From Escherichia phage BEU50, in the sequence record OM632671.1: 64,000 bases of DNA, one strand, 5' to 3'. Each line of letters begins with the position of its first letter. The first letter of the stretch is position 1. This document shows positions 29,881 through 55,463 of this stretch, piece by piece. The translations under genes and the position numbers were made by a program. The notes beneath the pieces were generated by a model. The model saw only the letters and a program-made list of their open reading frames with translations. It had not been told where the DNA came from and searched no databases.

Positions 29881-30140
29881 CTTTAGATGAATTTAACAAT
29901 GCTGGACTCAGGCTTGAAGTTGAAATGGACGTTAAAGATGATGATGGATTCGAGAACACTATCAAGTATTGGATTGAGCCATTACGCGTTGAAGGCAATG
30001 AAGTTAAAGCAGTTCATGTCTGCACCGACTGGGCTGTATCCTTTAACTTCAACATTTTAGATAATGACACACCTAAATCATTGCGAGATATGGCTGTATC
30101 TTGTATTAAGGATGCATACTGTGAAGTTTTCGACATTTGA
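29877..30140 (+). CDS. hypothetical protein (87 aa)
   Basis: ATGA overlap with gene 47. Confidence 0.45.
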   Translation: MTLDEFNNAGLRLEVEMDVKDDDGFENTIKYWIEPLRVEGNEVKAVHVCTDWAVSFNFNILDNDTPKSLRDMAVSCIKDAYCEVFDI

Positions 30141-30156
30141 CATTAATGATGAATTC
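30108..30156 (+). repeat. diverged direct repeat, copy A (SD + GTGAAG start + first codons)
   Basis: AAGGA, GTGAAG and GA(C/T)ATTAATGA(T/C)GAATT in the same spacing as 30312..30358. Confidence 0.5.
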
Positions 30157-30327
30157 ATAGCAAACATTGATTATACCGAAGAAGATTCTAGATATGTTGG
30201 AATAATTTATATTACATCAAAAACAGCACAAGGCGTTGTTTGCATGGCTGAATTTGATGAATACTTTTTAGATTATGATGATATGATAGAATGGTCTAAA
30301 AGATACATTAAAAGGAATCTTTTGTGA
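30121..30327 (+). CDS. hypothetical protein (about 68 aa)
   Basis: GTG start with AAGGA SD; N-terminus duplicated at the start of the downstream HNH gene. Confidence 0.4.
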   Translation: MKFSTFDINDEFIANIDYTEEDSRYVGIIYITSKTAQGVVCMAEFDEYFLDYDDMIEWSKRYIKRNLL

Positions 30328-30358
30328 AGAATTTTAAACTTGATATTAATGACGAATT
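30312..30358 (+). repeat. diverged direct repeat, copy B, at the start of the HNH gene
   Basis: Collinear with 30108..30156. Confidence 0.5.
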
Positions 30359-31178
30359 TTTAATAAAGGAATTAGTTGAAAAATTAGTGTTGAGCGAAGA
30401 AGACGCCAAGTCTTACATTAATTTTATTTCTATGAATTCAACTGTTAAAACTCCGGGTAAAACGGAAGCACATCACGTGCTTCCTAAATCAATATTTCCT
30501 GAATATTTAAAATCTACATGGAATTTAGTTAATTTAAGTCATTTTAATCATTTCAAAGCACATTTCTTATTAGCAAAAGGTAAAAATGGAAAAATGCTAA
30601 ATGCTTTAAATAGAATGATGTCAGGAAAAACATATAAAAATTTATCTTTAGCCGAAGTTGATTTAATAGCTGCTGAATATAGTTTTATAAGACAAGATGT
30701 AAGTGACACAATATCAAAAAGGCTTCAACAATATTATTCAAATCCGCAAAATAGAAATGCTGCTAGAGAAAGGGCATTAAAATATTTTTCAGTAGCAAAA
30801 AATAGGAAAGATAACAAAGAAAGATTAAATAATTTTAAAACAAAACAAAAAATTTCAATGGCTTCAAGGGAATGGTTTAATAACGAAGAAAATAAAATTA
30901 AACACCAAAAGGCTGTTCGTGCTGCTTTATCAAAACCTGAATATAAAATAGCTATATCAAATTCAGTAGCTGCTAGTTGGAAAAATCCGGAGATTAGAAA
31001 AGCTCATATAGCATCTCGACGAAAAGGCTATCATTGGGATAATAAAGATAAATTGTATGAATTGTGGATATCATATAATCGTCCTAAACATGTGATGTTT
31101 AGGAAAATGTTAGTTAAGAATGGATATCCAATAGAGGCTTCATTACAGGCTTTAGTTAAAGAATTTTCTTCATTGTGA
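30324..31178 (+). CDS. HNH homing endonuclease inserted between genes 47 and 46
   Basis: GTG start; AHHVLPKSIFPEY...LVNLSHFNHFKAH motif; Lys-rich NUMOD-like C-terminus. Confidence 0.75.
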   Translation: MKNFKLDINDEFLIKELVEKLVLSEEDAKSYINFISMNSTVKTPGKTEAHHVLPKSIFPEYLKSTWNLVNLSHFNHFKAHFLLAKGKNGKMLNALNRMMSGKTYKNLSLAEVDLIAAEYSFIRQDVSDTISKRLQQYYSNPQNRNAARERALKYFSVAKNRKDNKERLNNFKTKQKISMASREWFNNEENKIKHQKAVRAALSKPEYKIAISNSVAASWKNPEIRKAHIASRRKGYHWDNKDKLYELWISYNRPKHVMFRKMLVKNGYPIEASLQALVKEFSSL

Positions 31179-39829: not shown

Positions 39830-40465
39830 ATGAAAACTACTCCTATTACTATCGCTATTGACGCAATCATAAAACAAGCTTCTTCTTTGGCCGCTATGGC
39901 CAAAGTAATTAGTCAAAACCCTGCTCGTTATAATGCTATTCTAGAAACTCTTCGACGCCCGGGACTTAGTAATTATGAAAGCCGAGTAATTATTACAGGT
40001 GTTGGTAAGAATGCTAATATTGCAACTAAAGCTTCTGAGACATTTGCTTCACTCGGTATCCCGAGTATGTACTTGAACACTGGGCATTATTCTCACGGTG
40101 ATGCAGGATTCATTGCGCCTAATGATGTGTTGATTCATATTAGTCGTTCTGGTAAAACTGAAGAAATGATAGGCGTGGCTAAGCATCTTAAAATGATTCG
40201 ACCGAACGTCAAACAGATTCTGTTGCATTGTAACCCAGACATTCCACAAGAAAATGAAGCCCTTTTTGATTACTCTTTCTGTACAGGCATCGCAGTAGAG
40301 GTTGATGAGAATTCTCTGGCTCCGACTATGTCCACTACATTGTTGTTAGCGCTTATCGATACGTTTGCTATCAACCTTTCGTCTGAACGTGGATTTACCT
40401 CTAATGACTTCCTTAAGTTCCACCCTGGTGGTGCACTAGGTGCCATGTTACGAGGCGAACAATGA
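39830..40465 (+). CDS. SIS-domain sugar-phosphate isomerase, KdsD/GutQ-like arabinose-5-phosphate isomerase without CBS domains
   Basis: ITGVGKNANIATKASETFASLGIPS, HGDAGFIAPNDVLIHISRSGKTEE, LAPTMSTT...FHPGGALG parallel the KdsD SIS-domain motifs. Confidence 0.75.
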   Translation: MKTTPITIAIDAIIKQASSLAAMAKVISQNPARYNAILETLRRPGLSNYESRVIITGVGKNANIATKASETFASLGIPSMYLNTGHYSHGDAGFIAPNDVLIHISRSGKTEEMIGVAKHLKMIRPNVKQILLHCNPDIPQENEALFDYSFCTGIAVEVDENSLAPTMSTTLLLALIDTFAINLSSERGFTSNDFLKFHPGGALGAMLRGEQ

Positions 40466-40646: not shown

Positions 40647-42332
40647 ATGAAAAAAGCTGTTATTCTTGGTGCTGGACTGGCAACTCGTTTATATCCAATT
40701 ACTCACCATATTCCTAAGGTGCTTGTTAACTATAAACAAGACACTATTCTGAGCAATTTGTATACAATTTATTCTGACCTAGGCGCAGATGAAATTATTG
40801 TAGTAGTTCATTCAAAATTTGCTGAAACTGTTCGAGCTTATTGTGAGCAAGAAGGGTTCAATGTGACTATTCGTACAGTTGATGAAGCGTATGGTTCTGC
40901 TTATGCTCTTGCTAAATTACACAAAGATTTAGACGGCCATAATGTAATTGTTAACTGGTGTGATATTATTCCGGATTTTGGTTCATGGTCTTGGAATGTT
41001 AACGCAATCTATGTTAAGGGTGACGAATGTCGATATAATTTCGACGGTGAAAATATCACTAACGTAGGTTCAACAGGTGGTAATGTTGTAGGAATTTATC
41101 AGTTCAAAGACTGGGAATTCTATATGGGTTCTACTGATGAGGAAATTCATGAATACTGCAAAGGACGTGATTTCGTAGAATTCCTTTACGGCAGCGCATT
41201 CAATAAATCAGAGCTTATGAATCTAATTGATTTAGGTGATATGCCTAAACTTGAAAAAGCTCATGAAGTTCGTGAACTTAATCGTAGTTTTAATGCAGTT
41301 GAAATTGGTGAAGAAACTGTAACTAAATTCGCATTAACCGAACAGGGCCGAGCTCTTCAGAAAGATGAGATTTCGTGGTATTTGAAAGTGAAATCAGATT
41401 CAGTCCCTCAGTTAGTTTCTGTTAATGAAAATAACTTTGAAATGGAACGCATTAAAGGTAAGCCGGCATTTGAATATATTAAATCCAAATCAAGTCTTGC
41501 TCGTCCACAAATTGTTGATGCAATTTTAGATGCACTGAAATTCAGCACAGACACTTATTTTGTAAGTCCTGAAACTGTTCGTCGTGATTTCACTAAAGAA
41601 TTCTATACGAAAGTTATTGATCGTTGTGAAAGCATTCAACCATTGATTGATTCATTTGGTAAAATCACACATGTGAACTACACTAAGATTGGACGTCTGA
41701 AGCCAATGCTGAAACAAGCTTTAGAACACCTTATTCGTTATCATAACCGTTCTCAGGGACAGTACTCTGTTATTCATGGTGACCCGAACTTCAGTAATAC
41801 TATGATTACTGATAACGGCGAAGTCAAATTTATCGACCCTCGTGGATATTTTGGCGAAACCAAGATTTACGGGCCAAAATTGTACGATGAAGCTAAAGTG
41901 CTTTACGCTGTTTCAGGTTATGATGAATTCAATGCTAATCCGACCTGGGGACAGTTTACTATTGATGAAACAACTTGTAATGTGACTATTAACATCAATC
42001 CATTAGTTTACAAATATGGAAAGATGAGTTCGTTTAACGAGTATCATCATTTGGCAGTGGCAATTATCTGGATTGCATTAGGTGGTTATTTCAAGAATAA
42101 TCCACTTAAAGCGGTAGCCGCATATTATAAAGGTATGGAACTTCTGACTAAGCAATTACGTAACATGGGCCGTGTACTTCAGGACGGCTCTATTAGTTAT
42201 GACGTAGCAGAACCTGTAACGGCTACTCTGATTACAAAAAATCCTGGTAAATGGGTACTAACTGATAAAGAAACTGGTGTTTCCTATCGTCCAATCGGTG
42301 GCGATATCACTCATCAATGGGAACGAATTTGA
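40647..42332 (+). CDS. bifunctional sugar-1-phosphate nucleotidyltransferase / sugar kinase
   Basis: N-terminal ILGAGLATRLYPIT NTP-transferase motif; C-terminal VIHGDPNFSNTMITDNGEVKFIDPRGYFG kinase catalytic loop. Confidence 0.7.
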   Translation: MKKAVILGAGLATRLYPITHHIPKVLVNYKQDTILSNLYTIYSDLGADEIIVVVHSKFAETVRAYCEQEGFNVTIRTVDEAYGSAYALAKLHKDLDGHNVIVNWCDIIPDFGSWSWNVNAIYVKGDECRYNFDGENITNVGSTGGNVVGIYQFKDWEFYMGSTDEEIHEYCKGRDFVEFLYGSAFNKSELMNLIDLGDMPKLEKAHEVRELNRSFNAVEIGEETVTKFALTEQGRALQKDEISWYLKVKSDSVPQLVSVNENNFEMERIKGKPAFEYIKSKSSLARPQIVDAILDALKFSTDTYFVSPETVRRDFTKEFYTKVIDRCESIQPLIDSFGKITHVNYTKIGRLKPMLKQALEHLIRYHNRSQGQYSVIHGDPNFSNTMITDNGEVKFIDPRGYFGETKIYGPKLYDEAKVLYAVSGYDEFNANPTWGQFTIDETTCNVTININPLVYKYGKMSSFNEYHHLAVAIIWIALGGYFKNNPLKAVAAYYKGMELLTKQLRNMGRVLQDGSISYDVAEPVTATLITKNPGKWVLTDKETGVSYRPIGGDITHQWERI

Positions 42333-43078
42333 TACATTATCTCTACAAAACTACTAATCTTATAAACGGTAAAGTTTATTTAGGAATGCACTCGGCTGAA
42401 GAAGCCGAGCCTTTAGATTTATATAAAGGTTCTGGTAAATTATATAAAAAGGCTGAAAGGAAATACGGTAAGGAAAATTTTCTTAAAGAAATCATTTCCT
42501 ACCATAGCTCAAGAGAAGAATTAAAAATAGCTGAAAAGGCTCTAATAACATTAGACATAGTTAAAGACCCGAATTATTACAATCTTAAAACTGGTGGCGA
42601 AGGTGGTTCTGACGGGTTATCCCAAAGGTCCAAGGATAAAATTTCTAAGGCAAATAAAGGACGTTTAGTTGGTGATAAAAACCCAAGATGGGGTAAAACT
42701 TTGTCAGCTGAATCTATAGCTAGGGGTAAAGAAAAGCACAGGAGGTATGGTAAACCTGCATTACATGGTCTAAAGATTAATGTAGATGGCAAATATTATG
42801 AATCCTGTCGGGAAGCGGCTAAAGATTTGGGTATATCTTCTGCCACGATTCAAAAGAGAGTAAAATCGCCTAAATATCTTAATTATCGATATCAGGACGA
42901 AAGCAAAAATGCTCACAAGTCTCAAAAATTTGTTAAAATAAACGAAAATTACTATGAATCTCTTAGGATAGCTGAAAAGAAAACGGGTATTCCTAGAAAG
43001 CGTATAGCTGATAATATTAAAAATTCTATTGAAGGATATTGCTATGAAACCATTACATCTTTGCGTGGACGTCGATGA
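42317..43078 (+). CDS. GIY-YIG homing endonuclease (Seg-like)
   Basis: IHYLYKTTNLINGKVYLGMH GIY-YIG motif; C-terminal NUMOD/HTH-like region; overlaps both neighbours. Confidence 0.75.
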   Translation: MGTNLIHYLYKTTNLINGKVYLGMHSAEEAEPLDLYKGSGKLYKKAERKYGKENFLKEIISYHSSREELKIAEKALITLDIVKDPNYYNLKTGGEGGSDGLSQRSKDKISKANKGRLVGDKNPRWGKTLSAESIARGKEKHRRYGKPALHGLKINVDGKYYESCREAAKDLGISSATIQKRVKSPKYLNYRYQDESKNAHKSQKFVKINENYYESLRIAEKKTGIPRKRIADNIKNSIEGYCYETITSLRGRR

Positions 43079-43418
43079 TTGTATAACAGAGTGGAATAAC
43101 AATCGTGATTACGTGAACTTCAAACCAGACGTCGAAATGGTGTCTGCCATTAATGCCCTGTATGAGGCAGGGCATACCATAACGCTTTACACTGCTCGCG
43201 GTATGAAGTCAGTAGGTCCTGGTCGTATAGCAATTGACATTCTCCCAAGTCTGATTCAGAACTTGGCAAACATTGGCTTGAAGTACCATAATTTGCTAAC
43301 ACATAAACCAGTATATGATTGGATTATCGACGACAAAGCTATGCGTCCTGACGAATTCAAAGCTCTTATGAATAAAGGCGAATTCGAAACATTTAAATCA
43401 TATAAACCGAATCTATAA
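43044..43418 (+). CDS. HAD-superfamily phosphatase
   Basis: DVDDCIT motif I, downstream T, K and IIDD motifs; ORF-track start 43029 is TTG. Confidence 0.6.
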   Translation: MKPLHLCVDVDDCITEWNNNRDYVNFKPDVEMVSAINALYEAGHTITLYTARGMKSVGPGRIAIDILPSLIQNLANIGLKYHNLLTHKPVYDWIIDDKAMRPDEFKALMNKGEFETFKSYKPNL

Positions 43419-43464
43419 TAATTTAAGTAAGACCTGCAAAAACCATCGCATCAATTAACGTGAG

Positions 43465-44637
43465 ATGCAAAAAAAAATGAATACTTTTAAAATCGGAACG
43501 AATTTTGATTTAGCTCTTCTTGATAAAATCGTAGAGCTCAATAAAACTTATCCTAATAGCTTGATAAACGAAGTATACGGCTCTACAAGAGAAATGGCTT
43601 TTGTAGCAGCCAGACCTGATTTTAGGCTTCCTGACGTTGACAAAAAGATGTTAGAAGATTACGTTAAACGTTGTAACGAATTAGGTATTTGCTTTAACTA
43701 TACACTCAACACGATAAATCCTGGTTCAAAAAGAGAACTAGTTGAGTGGAAGAAGAAAGCTATTCAGGATTATGTTCAGTATCTTTGGTCAATAGGCGTA
43801 TGGCGTATTACTATCGCTAACCCTGTTGTTATGGAAATTGTTCGTGAAGTCAATAAAGACATTGAGATTGAAGTTTCAACAATTCTACATGTCGATGCTG
43901 TAACTCAAATCAAATACTTGCATGACCAATATAATATCAAAAAGGTCTGCTGTGGAATTCATAAGAACCGTTCAGTTTCTTTCCTGAAGCGTGCAGCAGA
44001 GTTTTGCAATAAGAACAATATAATATTTGAAGTTCTTGTAAATGAGTTCTGTTCTAATGCTGGTAAAGGGTATACAACACATTGTAGCTATCGTGACTCT
44101 TGCTATATTTTCCATAGTACTGATGTTACAGCTGATGATGCTAAATCCTTAAACGGATATCCAATGCAGCACTGTATTAAAGCTCGTGATACAGACCCAT
44201 TTAACTGGTTGAGAACTCGTTTTGTTCGTCCTCAAGATTTGAAACTTTATAATGATATTGGTATCACTCAATTCAAAGTTTCAGGACGTACAGGTAGCAC
44301 AGACTACATTTTGAAAGTTCTTGAAGCATACGCTTCTGAAAAGTTTGAAGGTAATTTGTTAGAACTGTGGAAGCCTTTAGAGACTATTTTCACTCTTGAA
44401 AACGAAACTGAGTTTTCACATACGGTAAATATTGAAACCTCTTTGTTAGATGGCTTTTTAGAAAAAAGGTGGTTCAGACATCCAGATTTCGATTGTGCTA
44501 ATGAAATCTGCGGGACGACGTGTACATATTGTGAAAGATATTATAAACGTCAGTTATCTAAAAATGGGTTATCAGAAAATTCTATATCTATTATTGATAT
44601 AACTAACTCTGACGACGCTTTGAGGTACCCGGAATGA
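43465..44637 (+). CDS. hypothetical Cys-rich protein, possible Fe-S enzyme (390 aa)
   Basis: C-terminal CANEICGTTCTYC (CxxxCxxC within it) plus CSYRDSCYIF; family not assignable by eye. Confidence 0.5.
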   Translation: MQKKMNTFKIGTNFDLALLDKIVELNKTYPNSLINEVYGSTREMAFVAARPDFRLPDVDKKMLEDYVKRCNELGICFNYTLNTINPGSKRELVEWKKKAIQDYVQYLWSIGVWRITIANPVVMEIVREVNKDIEIEVSTILHVDAVTQIKYLHDQYNIKKVCCGIHKNRSVSFLKRAAEFCNKNNIIFEVLVNEFCSNAGKGYTTHCSYRDSCYIFHSTDVTADDAKSLNGYPMQHCIKARDTDPFNWLRTRFVRPQDLKLYNDIGITQFKVSGRTGSTDYILKVLEAYASEKFEGNLLELWKPLETIFTLENETEFSHTVNIETSLLDGFLEKRWFRHPDFDCANEICGTTCTYCERYYKRQLSKNGLSENSISIIDITNSDDALRYPE

Positions 44638-44873
44638 TTTCTAGAAAAACTTTTAATTATAAACTTAATGAAGAGATTTTGACTATGAAACTGAACACCA
44701 ACGAACAAATTCTTAAAAAGGCCCTTATGGGCCTGTTTGAAACCAAAGCGGCTAAAGTGATTAAAGAACCTATTCAATTGGAATACTATGCTGATGCATT
44801 TCTTCATAGTGTTCTTGGAAGTATCGATGCTGAAGCTTTACGTTATATCAACATTGCCAAGAAATTCAAATAA
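44634..44873 (+). CDS. hypothetical protein (79 aa)
   Basis: ATGA overlap. Confidence 0.45.
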   Translation: MISRKTFNYKLNEEILTMKLNTNEQILKKALMGLFETKAAKVIKEPIQLEYYADAFLHSVLGSIDAEALRYINIAKKFK

Positions 44874-44896
44874 GCTTTACGAATTGAGTATATAAT
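44873..44896 (+). promoter_or_regulatory. middle-promoter-like element upstream of the gene 42 homologue
   Basis: AGCTTTA box, 11 nt spacer, TATAAT 44891-44896. Confidence 0.35.
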
Positions 44897-44915
44897 AAAT
44901 TGTATTGAGGTAAAC

Positions 44916-45632
44916 ATGGGAAAACATAACACAATGAAATATATCAAAGCCGCAGATTTTCAAGCCGCATTTAAAGCAGTCAATCGTGAAATTTTAGAAA
45001 ACCCGGAATTCGTAACTGATTCTCGTATTGGGCGTTGTAATGAAATTGGGTCTATGACAGTAGTTGTTGACACTCCATCATCATTCAAAATGACCGACCC
45101 ACGTATTAACCGCATCTCTTATGAATATGCCGAAGACTTCTGGAAGTTTATGATTTCTGGTGGTACCAACGCAGAAGAAGCGTTTAAGGCATATCCTAAT
45201 GTCGCTAAATTTATTTCTAAACCAAAATCAGATGTTTTGCCGGCGAACTTCAACACTTTCTATGGTCCTCGCATTGCGGCCCAATTACCAGCTCTTCTAA
45301 AAGAACTTAAAGAGAAGCCTAACTCTCGAAGAGTTGTGTTCCAAATTCTAGAAAGTTCTGATCAGGCTTTGCTTGATTCAGACGAAACGCTTGAATATCC
45401 ATGTACTGACTCAGTGACTTATTATATTCGTGATGGTAAGCTTTATACCCACTGTCATATGCGTTCTCAGAACTGTGCTGTTGTTATGCAGTTGGATTTT
45501 TATCTCCAAGGAAAATTACTTCATTATATCGCTAACGAATGTGGTGTAGAAGTTGGTGATTATACTCATACCATGGTAAGTGCCCATGTGTTTGAACGTG
45601 ATTTTGATTATGTTAAAGGATTCCTTGACTAA
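44916..45632 (+). CDS. 42: thymidylate-synthase-family deoxypyrimidylate hydroxymethylase (gene 42-like, divergent)
   Basis: PNSRRVVFQI, CTDSVTYYIRDGKLYTHCHMRSQN and SAHVFERDF parallel T4 gp42/ThyA catalytic regions, with low overall similarity to T4 gp42 as I recall it. Confidence 0.65.
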   Translation: MGKHNTMKYIKAADFQAAFKAVNREILENPEFVTDSRIGRCNEIGSMTVVVDTPSSFKMTDPRINRISYEYAEDFWKFMISGGTNAEEAFKAYPNVAKFISKPKSDVLPANFNTFYGPRIAAQLPALLKELKEKPNSRRVVFQILESSDQALLDSDETLEYPCTDSVTYYIRDGKLYTHCHMRSQNCAVVMQLDFYLQGKLLHYIANECGVEVGDYTHTMVSAHVFERDFDYVKGFLD

Positions 45633-46531
45633 TGGCTATTTTCCGCGTACCTATTTTGAGTATGCGGTCTTATGAAACTGGACAGTATGCCATCCTTAAG
45701 GATGGCAACTTCCAACTTCATTTGCACCGTGCTAATCCAGGTGATGTGATTACATATCCACGTAATGCATCCGATATTAAAGAATGTGAACGTCTTTTCC
45801 CAGAATTTAAGTTTGTTCCATTATGGTATAAAGATAACGCGTATAACACTCGTAAATATTTCTGGTCTGAAAATGAATTTGTGGTTGATTCATTAATCGC
45901 TTATTATGATTGTGATTTTCTAATCACAGATATCACTGGATACGACGGCGCTTTTGATGTAGAATTCAATTTCAATATCACTGCAGACCCTAATAAACCA
46001 CGTTTTTATATTGACGAATTCTTAAAAACCGACATGTTGTCGGTTAATCGTTCAATCCAAACAACTGTGTTGAATAAACGTCAAAAGGAAGTGCTGGTTA
46101 ACGCAGGTGCAGATGGTAATAAGATTATCATAACCCAGAAAGTTATACGTCCTTCCATCATGCAGCGTCTTGTAGGTGATTTAGCTCCTATTCATCTAGA
46201 TGGTATTTTTCATCCATTTCGAATTAGTGACCCGTGCTATCGGTTTGAACAAGTGGTTGAATGTGCAATTCAATTAGGCCAACCGCTTTATATAACCGAT
46301 CCAAATAATAGCTTCGACAGAAATAAGTATCCTGAAGAAGCGCTGATTCGAATTTTTAAACCAACTAAAACTGAGTACTATCAAATTCTTAAAGGACGTC
46401 CGAAGATTCAATATTTCGAAAATCCTGAAGAAGTATTCCATCCAGGTCTTGGTGAGTTCATCTACTTTAATGCTTTAATTTCTTCACCGTATAATATACC
46501 TAAATACGAAGATGTCGTAATCGAGGAATAA
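45632..46531 (+). CDS. hypothetical protein in the beta-glucosyltransferase position (299 aa); candidate DNA sugar transferase
   Basis: No recognisable motif; placement between gene 42 and uvsX only. Confidence 0.45.
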   Translation: MAIFRVPILSMRSYETGQYAILKDGNFQLHLHRANPGDVITYPRNASDIKECERLFPEFKFVPLWYKDNAYNTRKYFWSENEFVVDSLIAYYDCDFLITDITGYDGAFDVEFNFNITADPNKPRFYIDEFLKTDMLSVNRSIQTTVLNKRQKEVLVNAGADGNKIIITQKVIRPSIMQRLVGDLAPIHLDGIFHPFRISDPCYRFEQVVECAIQLGQPLYITDPNNSFDRNKYPEEALIRIFKPTKTEYYQILKGRPKIQYFENPEEVFHPGLGEFIYFNALISSPYNIPKYEDVVIEE

Positions 46532-46532
46532 A

Positions 46533-47081
46533 ATGGCTAAAATTATTTTAGTAGATGGCCCGGATAATGCTGGTAAAACAACTTTCATTAATGACATAAT
46601 GGAAATTAGTGAAAGATATGTAAAGATTGATTTCCCTAAACGAACAGTTGATGGACGTTTCGATGTTAAGTCTCGAAATGAAGTTGGCTGTTTCGAAACG
46701 ATGTTGAATTATTTAGACCCTACTAAGATTTATCTGTTAGACCGTGGATATATTAGTAACTGGGTTTACGGACGTATTCGACAAGATGCGGACTCTGTTC
46801 TTGACGTTTATGAACAGGATTATGTTCGTCTTTGCCAAAACCATGATGTGTTCACAATTATTTTAACACGTAACGAAATGACTGAAAGTTTTGAAGACGA
46901 CCTTATTACTTTGTCTTCATTCGGTTTTAATACAGTCATTTCACATTTTGAAGAGTTTGCAATTCATAACAAAATCCAAACGTATCAATTACTTAATCAT
47001 GATGGTGCTAACAAAGTTATAGGATTTAATGCAAGCGAACGTAATGTTTTGATTACAGAAATCATCAAATGGGCTCGTTAA
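46533..47081 (+). CDS. P-loop nucleotide kinase (thymidylate-kinase-like)
   Basis: Walker A VDGPDNAGKTT and DRGY (DRY-like) motif. Confidence 0.6.
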   Translation: MAKIILVDGPDNAGKTTFINDIMEISERYVKIDFPKRTVDGRFDVKSRNEVGCFETMLNYLDPTKIYLLDRGYISNWVYGRIRQDADSVLDVYEQDYVRLCQNHDVFTIILTRNEMTESFEDDLITLSSFGFNTVISHFEEFAIHNKIQTYQLLNHDGANKVIGFNASERNVLITEIIKWAR

Positions 47082-47101
47082 GAGCCATTTAAAGTTTTAA
47101 A

Positions 47102-47126
47102 TGCTGTATAACCCTTAGTATATAAT
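47102..47126 (+). promoter_or_regulatory. middle-promoter-like element upstream of uvsX
   Basis: TGCTGTA box, 12 nt, TATAAT 47121-47126. Confidence 0.35.
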
Positions 47127-47179
47127 CATCTTATCTTTTAAACATGAGTAAAATATAATGATGCCTATGGAAAAATACA

Positions 47180-48352
47180 ATGTCTGATTTAAAATCTCGT
47201 CTGATTAAAGCTTCTACTTCTAAAATGACTGCAGACTTGACTAAGTCTAAGCTGTTTAATAATCGTGATGAAGTCCCTACTCGTATTCCGATGTTGAATA
47301 TTGCATTAGGTGGTGCACTGAATGCAGGGTTGCAATCAGGCTTAACTATTTTTGCTGCTCCTTCTAAACACTTTAAAACGTTGTTTGGGCTGACTATGGT
47401 TGCAGCGTATATGAAGAAATATAAAGATGCAATCTGTTTGTTTTATGACTCAGAATTCGGTGCTTCAGAATCTTATTTTCGTTCAATGGGTGTTGATTTA
47501 GACCGTGTAGTTCATACTCCGATTCAATCTGTCGAACAACTTAAAGTCGATATGACTAATCAGCTTGACGCTATTGAACGCGGTGATAAAGTTATTATCT
47601 TTATTGACTCGATTGGTAATACTGCATCTAAGAAAGAAACCGAAGATGCATTGAACGAGAAAGTTGTAGGTGATATGTCTCGTGCTAAGGCACTTAAATC
47701 TCTGTTCCGCATTGTGACTCCTTATCTGACTATTAAAGATATTCCATGTGTTGCAATTAACCATACAGCAATGGAAATCGGCGGATTGTATCCTAAAGAG
47801 ATTATGGGCGGTGGTACAGGTATTCTTTATTCTGCCAACACGGTATTTTTTATCTCTAAACGTCAGGTTAAAGAAGGTACAGAATTGACCGGTTATGACT
47901 TCACGTTGAAAGCAGAAAAATCTCGCACAGTTAAAGAGAAATCTACTTTCCCGATCACGGTTAATTTTGATGGCGGTATTGACCCATTCAGTGGCTTGTT
48001 AGAAATGGCAACTGAAATTGGTTTTGTAGTTAAGCCTAAAGCCGGTTGGTATGCTCGCGAATTCCTTGACGAAGAAACAGGTGAAATGATTCGTGAAGAA
48101 AAATCATGGCGTGCTAAAGCTACTGATTGTGTAGAATTCTGGGGACCTTTGTTTAAACACAAACCTTTCCGAGATGCAATTGAAACTAAATATAAACTAG
48201 GTGCTATCTCTTCTATTAAAGAAGTTGATGACGCTGTTAATGACCTTATTAATTGCAAAGCAACAACTAAAGTTCCGGTTAAAACTTCTGATGCTCCGTC
48301 TGCAGCAGATATAGAAAACGACCTTGACGAAATGGAAGATTTCGATGAATAA
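47180..48352 (+). CDS. uvsX: RecA-like recombinase UvsX
   Basis: 390 aa; RecA-fold Walker motifs; acidic C-terminus. Confidence 0.95.
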   Translation: MSDLKSRLIKASTSKMTADLTKSKLFNNRDEVPTRIPMLNIALGGALNAGLQSGLTIFAAPSKHFKTLFGLTMVAAYMKKYKDAICLFYDSEFGASESYFRSMGVDLDRVVHTPIQSVEQLKVDMTNQLDAIERGDKVIIFIDSIGNTASKKETEDALNEKVVGDMSRAKALKSLFRIVTPYLTIKDIPCVAINHTAMEIGGLYPKEIMGGGTGILYSANTVFFISKRQVKEGTELTGYDFTLKAEKSRTVKEKSTFPITVNFDGGIDPFSGLLEMATEIGFVVKPKAGWYAREFLDEETGEMIREEKSWRAKATDCVEFWGPLFKHKPFRDAIETKYKLGAISSIKEVDDAVNDLINCKATTKVPVKTSDAPSAADIENDLDEMEDFDE

Positions 48353-54941: not shown

Positions 54942-55463
54942 ATGGCACACTTTAACGAATGTTCACAACTTATTTCTGGTGTTGATAAAGCAGAAGAAGC
55001 TTATTTTAATGCTCTGATTCACGAAGATAAAGACCCACTGCAGGTAATGCTTGATATGCAGAAATCTTTACAGGTTCGTCTGGCAAATGACAAGCCTGAA
55101 CATAACAAACATCCTGATGAATTGGCCACTGCTGGTGATGTTGTTGATTGGCTGCGTAATCAGAAAGATTATATTGATGATGAATTCCGTGAACTGCTGA
55201 CTTCACTTGGTGGTATGAGCAATGGTGAGAAAACCGCTAGCTCTGTATGGAAGCCATGGAAAGCACAACATGCTGAATATCGAAATCGTCGTATCGATGA
55301 ACTGTCTCCTGAAGACCAGCTTGAAATTAAATTCGAGATGATTGATATCCTCCACTTTGTTCTGAATATGTTCCAAGGTCTGGGTCTTTCCGCTGAAGAA
55401 ATCTTTAAACTTTACTACTTGAAAAACCAACACAACTTTGAACGTCAGGATAATGGTTACTGA
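54942..55463 (+). CDS. 56: dCTPase/dUTPase gp56 (MazG-like)
   Basis: MAHFNEC start as in T4 gp56; ORF-track start 54927 is TTG. Confidence 0.9.
   Translation: MAHFNECSQLISGVDKAEEAYFNALIHEDKDPLQVMLDMQKSLQVRLANDKPEHNKHPDELATAGDVVDWLRNQKDYIDDEFRELLTSLGGMSNGEKTASSVWKPWKAQHAEYRNRRIDELSPEDQLEIKFEMIDILHFVLNMFQGLGLSAEEIFKLYYLKNQHNFERQDNGY

Follow-up and report, generated by a model that had tools for sequence, protein, structure and literature searches.

Which reaction is catalysed by the protein that Escherichia phage BEU50 encodes at the gene-42 position, where T4 codes for its deoxycytidine monophosphate (dCMP) hydroxymethylase? The question arises for the open reading frame (ORF) at 44916..45632 (+) in a stretch of 64,000 nucleotides from sequence record OM632671.1, which is referred to as the window in the following. 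An original prediction, made from the sequence alone, had described a thymidylate synthase (TS) family enzyme at this position which looked much more divergent from T4 than the products of neighbouring genes. We consider it almost certain that the ORF encodes a dCMP 5-hydroxylase (5-hydroxy-dCMP synthase), an enzyme which is called AfhB in phage HY126 and gp48 in RB69. Our own analysis provides orthology, fold, signature residues and gene context. Product identity, incorporation of 18O2, flavin binding, and crystal structures that contain dCMP and flavin come from the literature and refer to proteins which are ca. 98% identical; from these we infer that the exact variant encoded in the window is catalytically active. 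This kind of hydroxylase is already known from at least three papers from 2025-2026, with crystal structures, and the window thus adds a new isolate rather than a new kind.

The window protein is 98.7% identical to RB69 gp48 (NP_861738). A sequence search of PDB retrieved near-identical chains, 9IQC and 9IR2 (238 residues) as well as 9IQU, which represent AfhB from phage HY126 (ca. 98% identity). The titles of these entries read "Monooxygenase dependent on riboflavin with dCMP and FAD" (flavin adenine dinucleotide, FAD) and "phage HY126 dCMP hydroxylase-AfhB with substrate dCMP". An AlphaFold model of the window protein (predicted local distance difference test, pLDDT, 86; predicted template modelling score, pTM, 0.85) superimposes on 9IQC with a template modelling (TM) score of 0.93 at 98% sequence identity. 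The next best structures are the CMP hydroxymethylase MilA (TM 0.84, 23% identity) and ordinary thymidylate synthases, while structures of T4 gp42 were found neither among the top 50 Foldseek matches nor among the top 60 phmmer matches to PDB.

The function has been established experimentally for these orthologues. RB69 gp48, and also gp80 from Acinetobacter phage DLP3, convert dCMP to 5-hydroxy-dCMP (5hodCMP; Lee et al., Nucleic Acids Res 2026, PMC13326640). For RB69 gp48, 5-hydroxydeoxycytidine (5hodC, 243 Da) was found in vivo with its hydroxyl oxygen originating from 18O2 (PMC13326640). This protein has a yellow colour when purified and releases co-purifying flavin mononucleotide (FMN) (PMC13326640). 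In RB69 DNA, arabinose is ether-linked directly to C5 via 5-hydroxycytosine and not via hydroxymethylcytosine (PMC13326640). The crystal structure of the HY126 enzyme with flavin and an in vitro reconstitution are credited to He et al. (Nat Chem Biol 2026) in PMC13326640.

The window is a segment of a Mosigvirus genome, a genus of RB69-like T-even phages. The 10 kilobases around the ORF share 99% identity with Escherichia phages NRG-P0074 and a20, and 98% with RB69. The ORF extends exactly over 44916..45632 (+) and codes for 238 amino acids. It starts with ATG, has a GAGG motif 7 nucleotides upstream, and ends with a TAA stop codon that overlaps the ATG of the next ORF (45632..46531).

When T4 proteins (from NC_000866) were compared to the window by tblastn, gp42 matched the ORF with only 24.8% identity over 218 residues (E 1e-10). 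The proteins encoded in the neighbourhood are much closer to T4, namely gp41 (85.6%), gp46 (82.5%), gp45 (78.9%), RegA (78.7%), gp44 (77.5%), gp61 (74.0%), UvsX (67.7%) and gp43 (61.6%). The exceptional divergence of a TS-family enzyme at the gene-42 position, as claimed by the original prediction, is thus real (24.8% versus 61.6-85.6%), and the value is clearly below the more than 60% identity to T4 gp42 that had been named as speaking against the claim. The core motifs which had been recognized as shared with T4 gp42 could also be located: the double arginine corresponds to R138/R139, the Cys segment to the catalytic Cys163, and the C-terminal motif to the region of His224.

In a reverse search, orthologues of T4-type gp42 were found to be 55-100% identical to T4, and this includes the copies from Aeromonas phages. 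The Mosigvirus copies reached only 24.8% identity to T4 gp42 (E ca. 4e-6), which is level with thymidylate synthases from Bacillus phages. As T4-type gp42 stays at 55% or above while the Mosigvirus copies reach 24.8%, the contrast does not represent ordinary rate variation or the fast drift of a single orthologue. Pairwise phmmer comparison resulted in 41.8 bits between the window protein and E. coli ThyA (catalytic core), 29.8 bits between the window protein and T4 gp42, and 30.5 bits between T4 gp42 and ThyA. Judged by these scores, the three proteins are roughly equidistant branches of one superfamily.

To which branch the window protein belongs is indicated by its signature residues, which were mapped by a three-way alignment of the window protein, T4 gp42, and E. 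coli ThyA. An Asn at the position of Asp169 in E. coli ThyA, together with N177D and L143D/E, has been proposed as diagnostic for the hydroxylase, and D169N predicts hydroxylase activity in nine further homologues (PMC13326640). The window protein has Asn186 (D169N), Asp194 (N177D), and Glu160 (L143E) in addition to Cys163 (C146). All four residues occur in each of the 120 closest cluster representatives (the best 120 from a search of 5.8 billion proteins), while both T4 gp42 and ThyA have Asp at the D169 position. The phosphate-binding residues R138, R139, R183, and S184 are retained, as are Tyr116 and His224. Residues on the folate side are swapped (W80 to Ala97, W83 to Ile100, G173 to Val190, F176 to Leu193), and the long C-terminus of ThyA is missing. 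From the folate site of T4 gp42, Asp171 (equivalent to D169) and Trp82 (equivalent to W80) are not kept, being Asn186 and Ala97 in the window protein. The nucleophile Cys148 and the cytosine-specifying Asp179 of T4 gp42 are kept as Cys163 and Asp194; these two are common to the hydroxylase branch and do not discriminate. Over 46 homologues with identities down to 52%, 53 positions are invariant, and these include the whole active site.

The alternative which survives best, while still being very improbable, is that of a T4-type dCMP hydroxymethylase which has strongly diverged but is still functional. Such an enzyme would produce 5-hydroxymethyl-dCMP (5hmdCMP) from dCMP and methylene-tetrahydrofolate (methylene-THF), and the DNA would contain arabinosyl-hydroxymethylcytosine (ara-hmC). 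The gene is indeed syntenic to T4 gene 42, in the interval from gene 43 to uvsX and beside a glycosyltransferase gene, its product shares with T4 gp42 the TS fold, the catalytic Cys, the Asp at N177 and an acidic residue at L143, and many GenBank records carry the hydroxymethylase label. However, this alternative is difficult to reconcile with an identity of 24.8% when real orthologues have at least 55%, with the replacement of the pterin-binding Asp169 by Asn, and with the loss of W80 and W83. It is contradicted by the published product analysis for the orthologue, which binds flavin and yields 5hodC with 18O from O2 (PMC13326640), and also by the orthologue crystal structure having been deposited as that of a flavin-dependent monooxygenase.

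An ordinary thymidylate synthase, converting deoxyuridine monophosphate (dUMP) to deoxythymidine monophosphate (dTMP), is a negligible possibility, despite the GenBank label "thymidylate synthase" and despite PF00303 and the NCBIfam TS models being the only library matches. PF00303 (Thymidylat_synt; 56.9 bits, cutoff 24.3) matches only residues 122-235 in the C-terminal half, and the NCBIfam TS models score 17-68 bits while their cutoffs are 108-427 bits, so that all of these matches are far below cutoff (e.g. 68 bits versus 174.55). In addition, Asn177 is replaced by the cytosine-specifying Asp and Asp169 by Asn, the protein lacks both the folate-binding Trp residues and the C-terminal tail, and the product of the orthologue is 5hodCMP by experiment (PMC13326640). 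That the protein is a catalytically dead relic, with all hydroxylation being performed by its U32-family neighbour (see below), can be dismissed with equal ease: there are U32 cassettes in other phages which lack a TS-like gene, but the active site is invariant over the 46 homologues, the orthologue gives 5hodC when expressed alone (PMC13326640), and phages of Acinetobacter and the Dhakavirus group have the TS-like gene without U32.

Some points weigh against the assignment as a dCMP 5-hydroxylase. The window protein and RB69 gp48 differ by the substitutions A17T, N85D, and V107A. Residue 85 (codon at 45168..45170) is Asn in the window protein but Asp in at least 97% of the family, and both RB69 gp48 and the HY126 enzyme that was crystallised have this Asp. 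A protein which is identical to that from the window, including Asn85, occurs in phage AV109, and this variant is thus found in at least one other isolate. For RB69, ara-hmC was reported by Thomas et al. 2018 (PMC6024577), which would favour a hydroxymethylase, but this assignment is explicitly termed erroneous in a later paper (PMC13390438). The identity of the flavin differs between sources, being FMN according to Lee et al. (PMC13326640) but riboflavin and FAD according to the PDB titles. Finally, a Cys-C6 adduct and the flavin-peroxide steps are parts of the reaction that we infer.

For the dCMP 5-hydroxylase, a mechanism can be proposed from established TS chemistry and the published flavin and 18O2 data. 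The substrate dCMP would be held at its phosphate by R138, R139, R183, and S184, with Asp194 selecting cytosine. Cys163 would add to C6, as in other TS-family enzymes, and would thereby activate C5. Instead of attacking methylene-THF, C5 would be oxygenated by a flavin-derived oxygen species from O2, and elimination of Cys would free 5-hydroxy-dCMP. Kinases would raise this compound to the triphosphate, which the phage polymerase would insert in place of deoxycytidine, while gp56 dCTPase would remove deoxycytidine triphosphate (dCTP). The 5-oxygen would then be arabinosylated directly by DNA arabinosyltransferases. The required uridine diphosphate (UDP)-arabinose would be supplied by an isomerase, a bifunctional kinase/pyrophosphorylase, and a phosphatase which are encoded just upstream.

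These considerations bear on further suggestions of the original prediction. Altered substrate handling does not apply, as dCMP is still the substrate (the cytosine-specificity residue Asp194 is kept) and it is the cofactor and the chemistry that have changed. The notion of a drifted dCMP hydroxymethylase has to be abandoned, as near-identical orthologues hydroxylate C5 with flavin and O2, yielding 5-hydroxy-dCMP. Because the reaction is a flavin/O2 hydroxylation, the assay that had been recommended (dCMP versus dUMP with methylene-THF) would miss the activity. The suspected connection to an alternative sugar pathway proved to be correct, as a complete arabinosylation gene set surrounds the hydroxylase.

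Homologues of RB69p045-p055, which include a glycosyltransferase, a nucleotide kinase, and genes for nucleoside diphosphate sugars, are all present around the hydroxylase with 92-100% identity, and their functions are taken from PMC13326640. All genes are encoded on the plus strand. The upstream part of the set begins with the arabinose-5-phosphate isomerase (39830..40465; 100% identical to RB69p055) and the AfhE-like bifunctional arabinose-phosphate kinase / UDP-arabinose pyrophosphorylase (40647..42332; RB69p052:53; 561 amino acids, intact). These are followed by an AfhF-like HAD-family sugar phosphatase (43029..43418; RB69p051), the N-terminus of which is altered by an endonuclease insertion upstream, by a U32-family protein (43465..44637; RB69p050) with ten family-invariant Cys residues, and by an ORF for 79 amino acids (44634..44873; RB69p049). 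Directly downstream of the hydroxylase is DNA arabinosyltransferase 1 (45632..46531; RB69p046:47; 299 amino acids; PMC13326640 Table 1), a single intact ORF the ATG of which overlaps the hydroxylase stop codon. It is followed by a thymidylate-kinase-like (Tmk-like) nucleotide kinase with a P-loop (46533..47081; RB69p045; 182 amino acids). This is probably a kinase for the modified deoxynucleoside monophosphate, and its homologues in other phages accompany U32 and the glycosyltransferase.

In the RB69 reference, p052/p053 and p046/p047 are split genes, a fact ascribed to sequencing error by Lee et al. (PMC13326640), while their counterparts in the window (40647..42332 and 45632..46531) are single intact ORFs. 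The intact ORFs support the published view that the RB69 record contains frameshift sequencing errors. Farther away, the window contains the gene for gp56 dCTPase (54942..55463, +; 71.7% identical to T4). From established T4 biology, this enzyme is a source of dCMP and depletes the pool of dCTP. Its role is also given in Table 1 of PMC13326640.

Upstream of the hydroxylase gene, AAGCTTTA is followed, after 13 nucleotides, by TATAAT (44872..44898, +). By eye, this resembles a MotA-dependent middle promoter of T4. Sigma-70-like sites are not enriched in the region 43300-47300 (14 found versus 15.3 expected from shuffled sequences). In hundreds of phage records in GenBank, the hydroxylase is labelled "thymidylate synthase", "dCMP hydroxymethylase", or "hypothetical protein". 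The hydroxylase function was used in none of the annotations seen for phage-collection matches to window positions 44916..45632.

The O2 requirement of the TS-like enzyme is awkward for a gut phage, and thus the adjoining U32 gene (43465..44637) was analysed. Its product matches PF01136 (U32) with 42.2 bits (cutoff 22.4). All bacterial U32 proteins with a characterised function are, to our knowledge, O2-independent hydroxylases that require prephenate. RlhA generates ho5C2501 in 23S rRNA and TrhP generates ho5U34 in tRNA, and UbiU/UbiV also belong to U32 (E. coli annotations; Kimura 2017 and Lauhon 2019, as cited in the literature). By Lee et al., RB69p050 is labelled as "sugar or heterocycle reductase", and their text contains neither U32 nor prephenate nor chorismate (PMC13326640). 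We propose that the phage protein may be a prephenate-dependent, O2-independent cytosine-C5 hydroxylase, which would provide a second, non-homologous route to 5-hydroxy-(d)cytosine beside the TS-like enzyme, and we see equally good chances for this proposal to hold or to fail. It derives only from comparative genomics and may already be addressed in He 2026 or Mahler 2025. The literature covered, which did not extend to these two papers, contained nothing that ties U32, prephenate, or chorismate mutase to phage 5-hydroxycytosine.

Over T4-like phages of facultative anaerobes, U32 is 82-100% conserved, which exceeds the conservation of the TS-like gene. U32 from the window is 86% identical to its homologue in Klebsiella phage PWKp16, while the TS-like gene is 77.6% identical, and the U32 protein of Shewanella phage Thanatos-2 has 82% identity. 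Among the 221 phage records with U32, all named organisms are phages of Enterobacterales or Shewanella. Acinetobacter is absent from this tally, although 65 Acinetobacter phages have the TS-like gene. Species of Acinetobacter are strict aerobes. U32 is also absent from the cluster of Acinetobacter phage Konradin and from the published cluster of DLP3 (PMC13326640). As DLP3 makes tri-arabinosyl-5-hydroxycytosine (PMC13326640) while lacking U32 in this cluster, U32 is not needed for the synthesis of UDP-arabinose. A general presence of U32 in phages of facultative anaerobes could not be upheld as a strict rule, as the E. coli Dhakavirus WG01 has the TS-like gene without U32.

In PWKp16, the ORF between U32 and the TS-like gene codes for an AroQ chorismate mutase (PF01817, 39.5 bits, cutoff 27). 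By tblastn, a chorismate mutase was found at the equivalent position in 51 phage records from more than 10 host genera. In the window, this slot is occupied by the 79-residue ORF (44634..44873), which is conserved in Mosigvirus. It was considered as a candidate chorismate mutase but was rejected, having no Pfam or NCBIfam match and no similarity to the enzyme from PWKp16. Phages of Yersinia and Pectobacterium carry a homologue of the 79-residue ORF plus a chorismate mutase.

U32 homologues with 45-58% identity are common in metagenomic phage contigs, where they are found within nucleotide-metabolism modules. We systematically surveyed the neighbourhood (8-10 kilobases on either side) of 54 U32 loci, 15 of which are T4-like while 39 are not. 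A TS-family gene is found beside U32 in all 15 T4-like loci but in only one of the 39 others, and this single case is a canonical ThyA with L143, D169, and N177. The majority of the non-T4-like loci have homologues of the Tmk-like kinase (29 of 39) and of the 299-residue glycosyltransferase (26 of 39), while the AfhE-like bifunctional enzyme (17), chorismate mutase (11), and the isomerase (10) are less frequent. The chorismate mutases in non-T4-like loci were detected by an iterative hidden Markov model search with Pfam confirmation, as tblastn alone had given a single case. Together with 13 of the 15 T4-like loci, chorismate mutase occurs beside U32 in 24 of the 54 loci. When matches were checked with Pfam, nine of nine were above cutoff, seven of them from non-T4-like loci. 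Five of the chorismate mutases are fusions to 3-deoxy-D-arabino-heptulosonate 7-phosphate (DAHP) synthase which directly adjoin U32.

The U32 cassettes are compact and co-directional. Gene orders include kinase-glycosyltransferase-U32, kinase-glycosyltransferase-isomerase-AfhE-U32, glycosyltransferase-isomerase-AfhE-kinase-DAHP synthase::chorismate mutase-U32, and U32-chorismate mutase-glycosyltransferase-AfhE. The non-T4-like cassette is the RB69 cassette minus the TS-like gene, with U32 in what would be the slot of the hydroxylase. U32 would act on the mononucleotide, which would explain the kinase as its constant partner, and both routes would coexist in T4-like phages of facultative anaerobes.

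The relationship to the bacterial proteins is a distant one. Pairwise phmmer comparisons of the phage U32 protein with RlhA, TrhP, UbiU, and UbiV from E. coli revealed no significant similarity, and a sequence search of PDB gave no match. Among profile comparisons, that with RlhA was best (hhalign probability 77%, E 2e-5) and includes the U32 signature Cys pair, while TrhP and UbiU resulted in a probability of ca. 6%. Ten Cys residues, among them putative ligands of an Fe-S cluster, are invariant among 25 homologues, and two of these Cys residues align with the signature Cys residues of RlhA. If the proposal is true, U32 would enable DNA modification by the phage under the anoxic conditions of the gut, similar to T4, which has both aerobic and anaerobic ribonucleotide reductases. 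It would then represent an anaerobic route to DNA hypermodification and the first DNA-related role for the U32 hydroxylase family.

Two further observations concern endonuclease genes. One of them codes for a GIY-YIG homing endonuclease (42317..43078, +; 45% identity to T4 SegA) and represents an insertion which separates the AfhE-like gene from that for the HAD phosphatase. It is missing in RB69, overlaps both of its neighbours, and replaces the first ca. 7 residues of the phosphatase. The other is an HNH endonuclease ORF (30324..31178, +) between genes 46.1 and 46. Beside it, a tract of ca. 300 bp (ca. 30050-30345, gp46.1) has 98-100% nucleotide identity to T4, while the flanking DNA has 62-82%. 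On the basis of these identities, the tract looks like a homing or co-conversion footprint from a T4-type donor.

The dCMP 5-hydroxylase is a case where a scaffold for folate-dependent one-carbon transfer has been turned into a flavin monooxygenase. It corrects, as published in 2025-2026, the long-standing belief that RB69 DNA contains arabinosyl-hydroxymethylcytosine. In the databases, hundreds of phage genomes carry an incorrect label for this enzyme, such as "thymidylate synthase" or "dCMP hydroxymethylase". Hydroxylases can be told from hydroxymethylases by an Asn at the D169 position, and this distinction bears on the predicted sensitivity to restriction, CRISPR, and type IV systems, and on the predicted ease of sequencing therapeutic phages. 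For the window itself, the finding is mainly a confirmation that such an enzyme can be spotted by a reading of the sequence.

Compared with known systems, the window protein is closest to AfhB from HY126 (9IQC, 9IR2, 9IQU) and to RB69 gp48, with which it shares length, signature residues, and gene neighbourhood; DLP3 gp80 is listed together with these as a characterised dCMP 5-hydroxylase (5hodCMP synthase). It differs from AfhB and gp48 by 3-5 conservative substitutions, including Asn85 at the nearly invariant Asp, from which no difference in function is to be expected. With T4 gp42 it has in common the fold, the dCMP substrate, the catalytic Cys, the acidic residues at N177 and L143, and the map position beside a DNA glycosyltransferase gene. 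The overall logic is also the same, as a modified deoxynucleoside monophosphate is made prior to replication and is glycosylated afterwards. It differs from T4 gp42 by its low sequence identity and by the loss of the folate-binding Asp169, W80, and W83, and it performs flavin/O2 hydroxylation rather than folate-dependent hydroxymethyl transfer. Its product is shorter by one carbon, so that the sugar is placed on an ether oxygen which is attached directly to C5.

MilA (5JNH, 5B6D) is the closest solved structure from outside the family, with an alignment over the full length and a cytosine-specific Asp. In contrast to the window protein, it is folate-dependent, acts on a ribonucleotide, and has a larger C-terminal extension. 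ThyA belongs to the same superfamily, is similar over the catalytic core, and shares the covalent activation chemistry via Cys and C6. It differs in being dUMP-specific through Asn177 and in transferring a methyl group with a folate cofactor, and the phage enzyme lacks its residues W80, W83, D169, G173, and F176. As to the second proposed route, the U32 protein shares the U32 domain with RlhA, TrhP, and UbiU/UbiV, and the phage gene is genomically linked to chorismate mutase, which makes prephenate. Unlike these proteins, it has an additional C-terminal CX4CX3CX2C cluster, and its substrate would be a deoxynucleotide or DNA.

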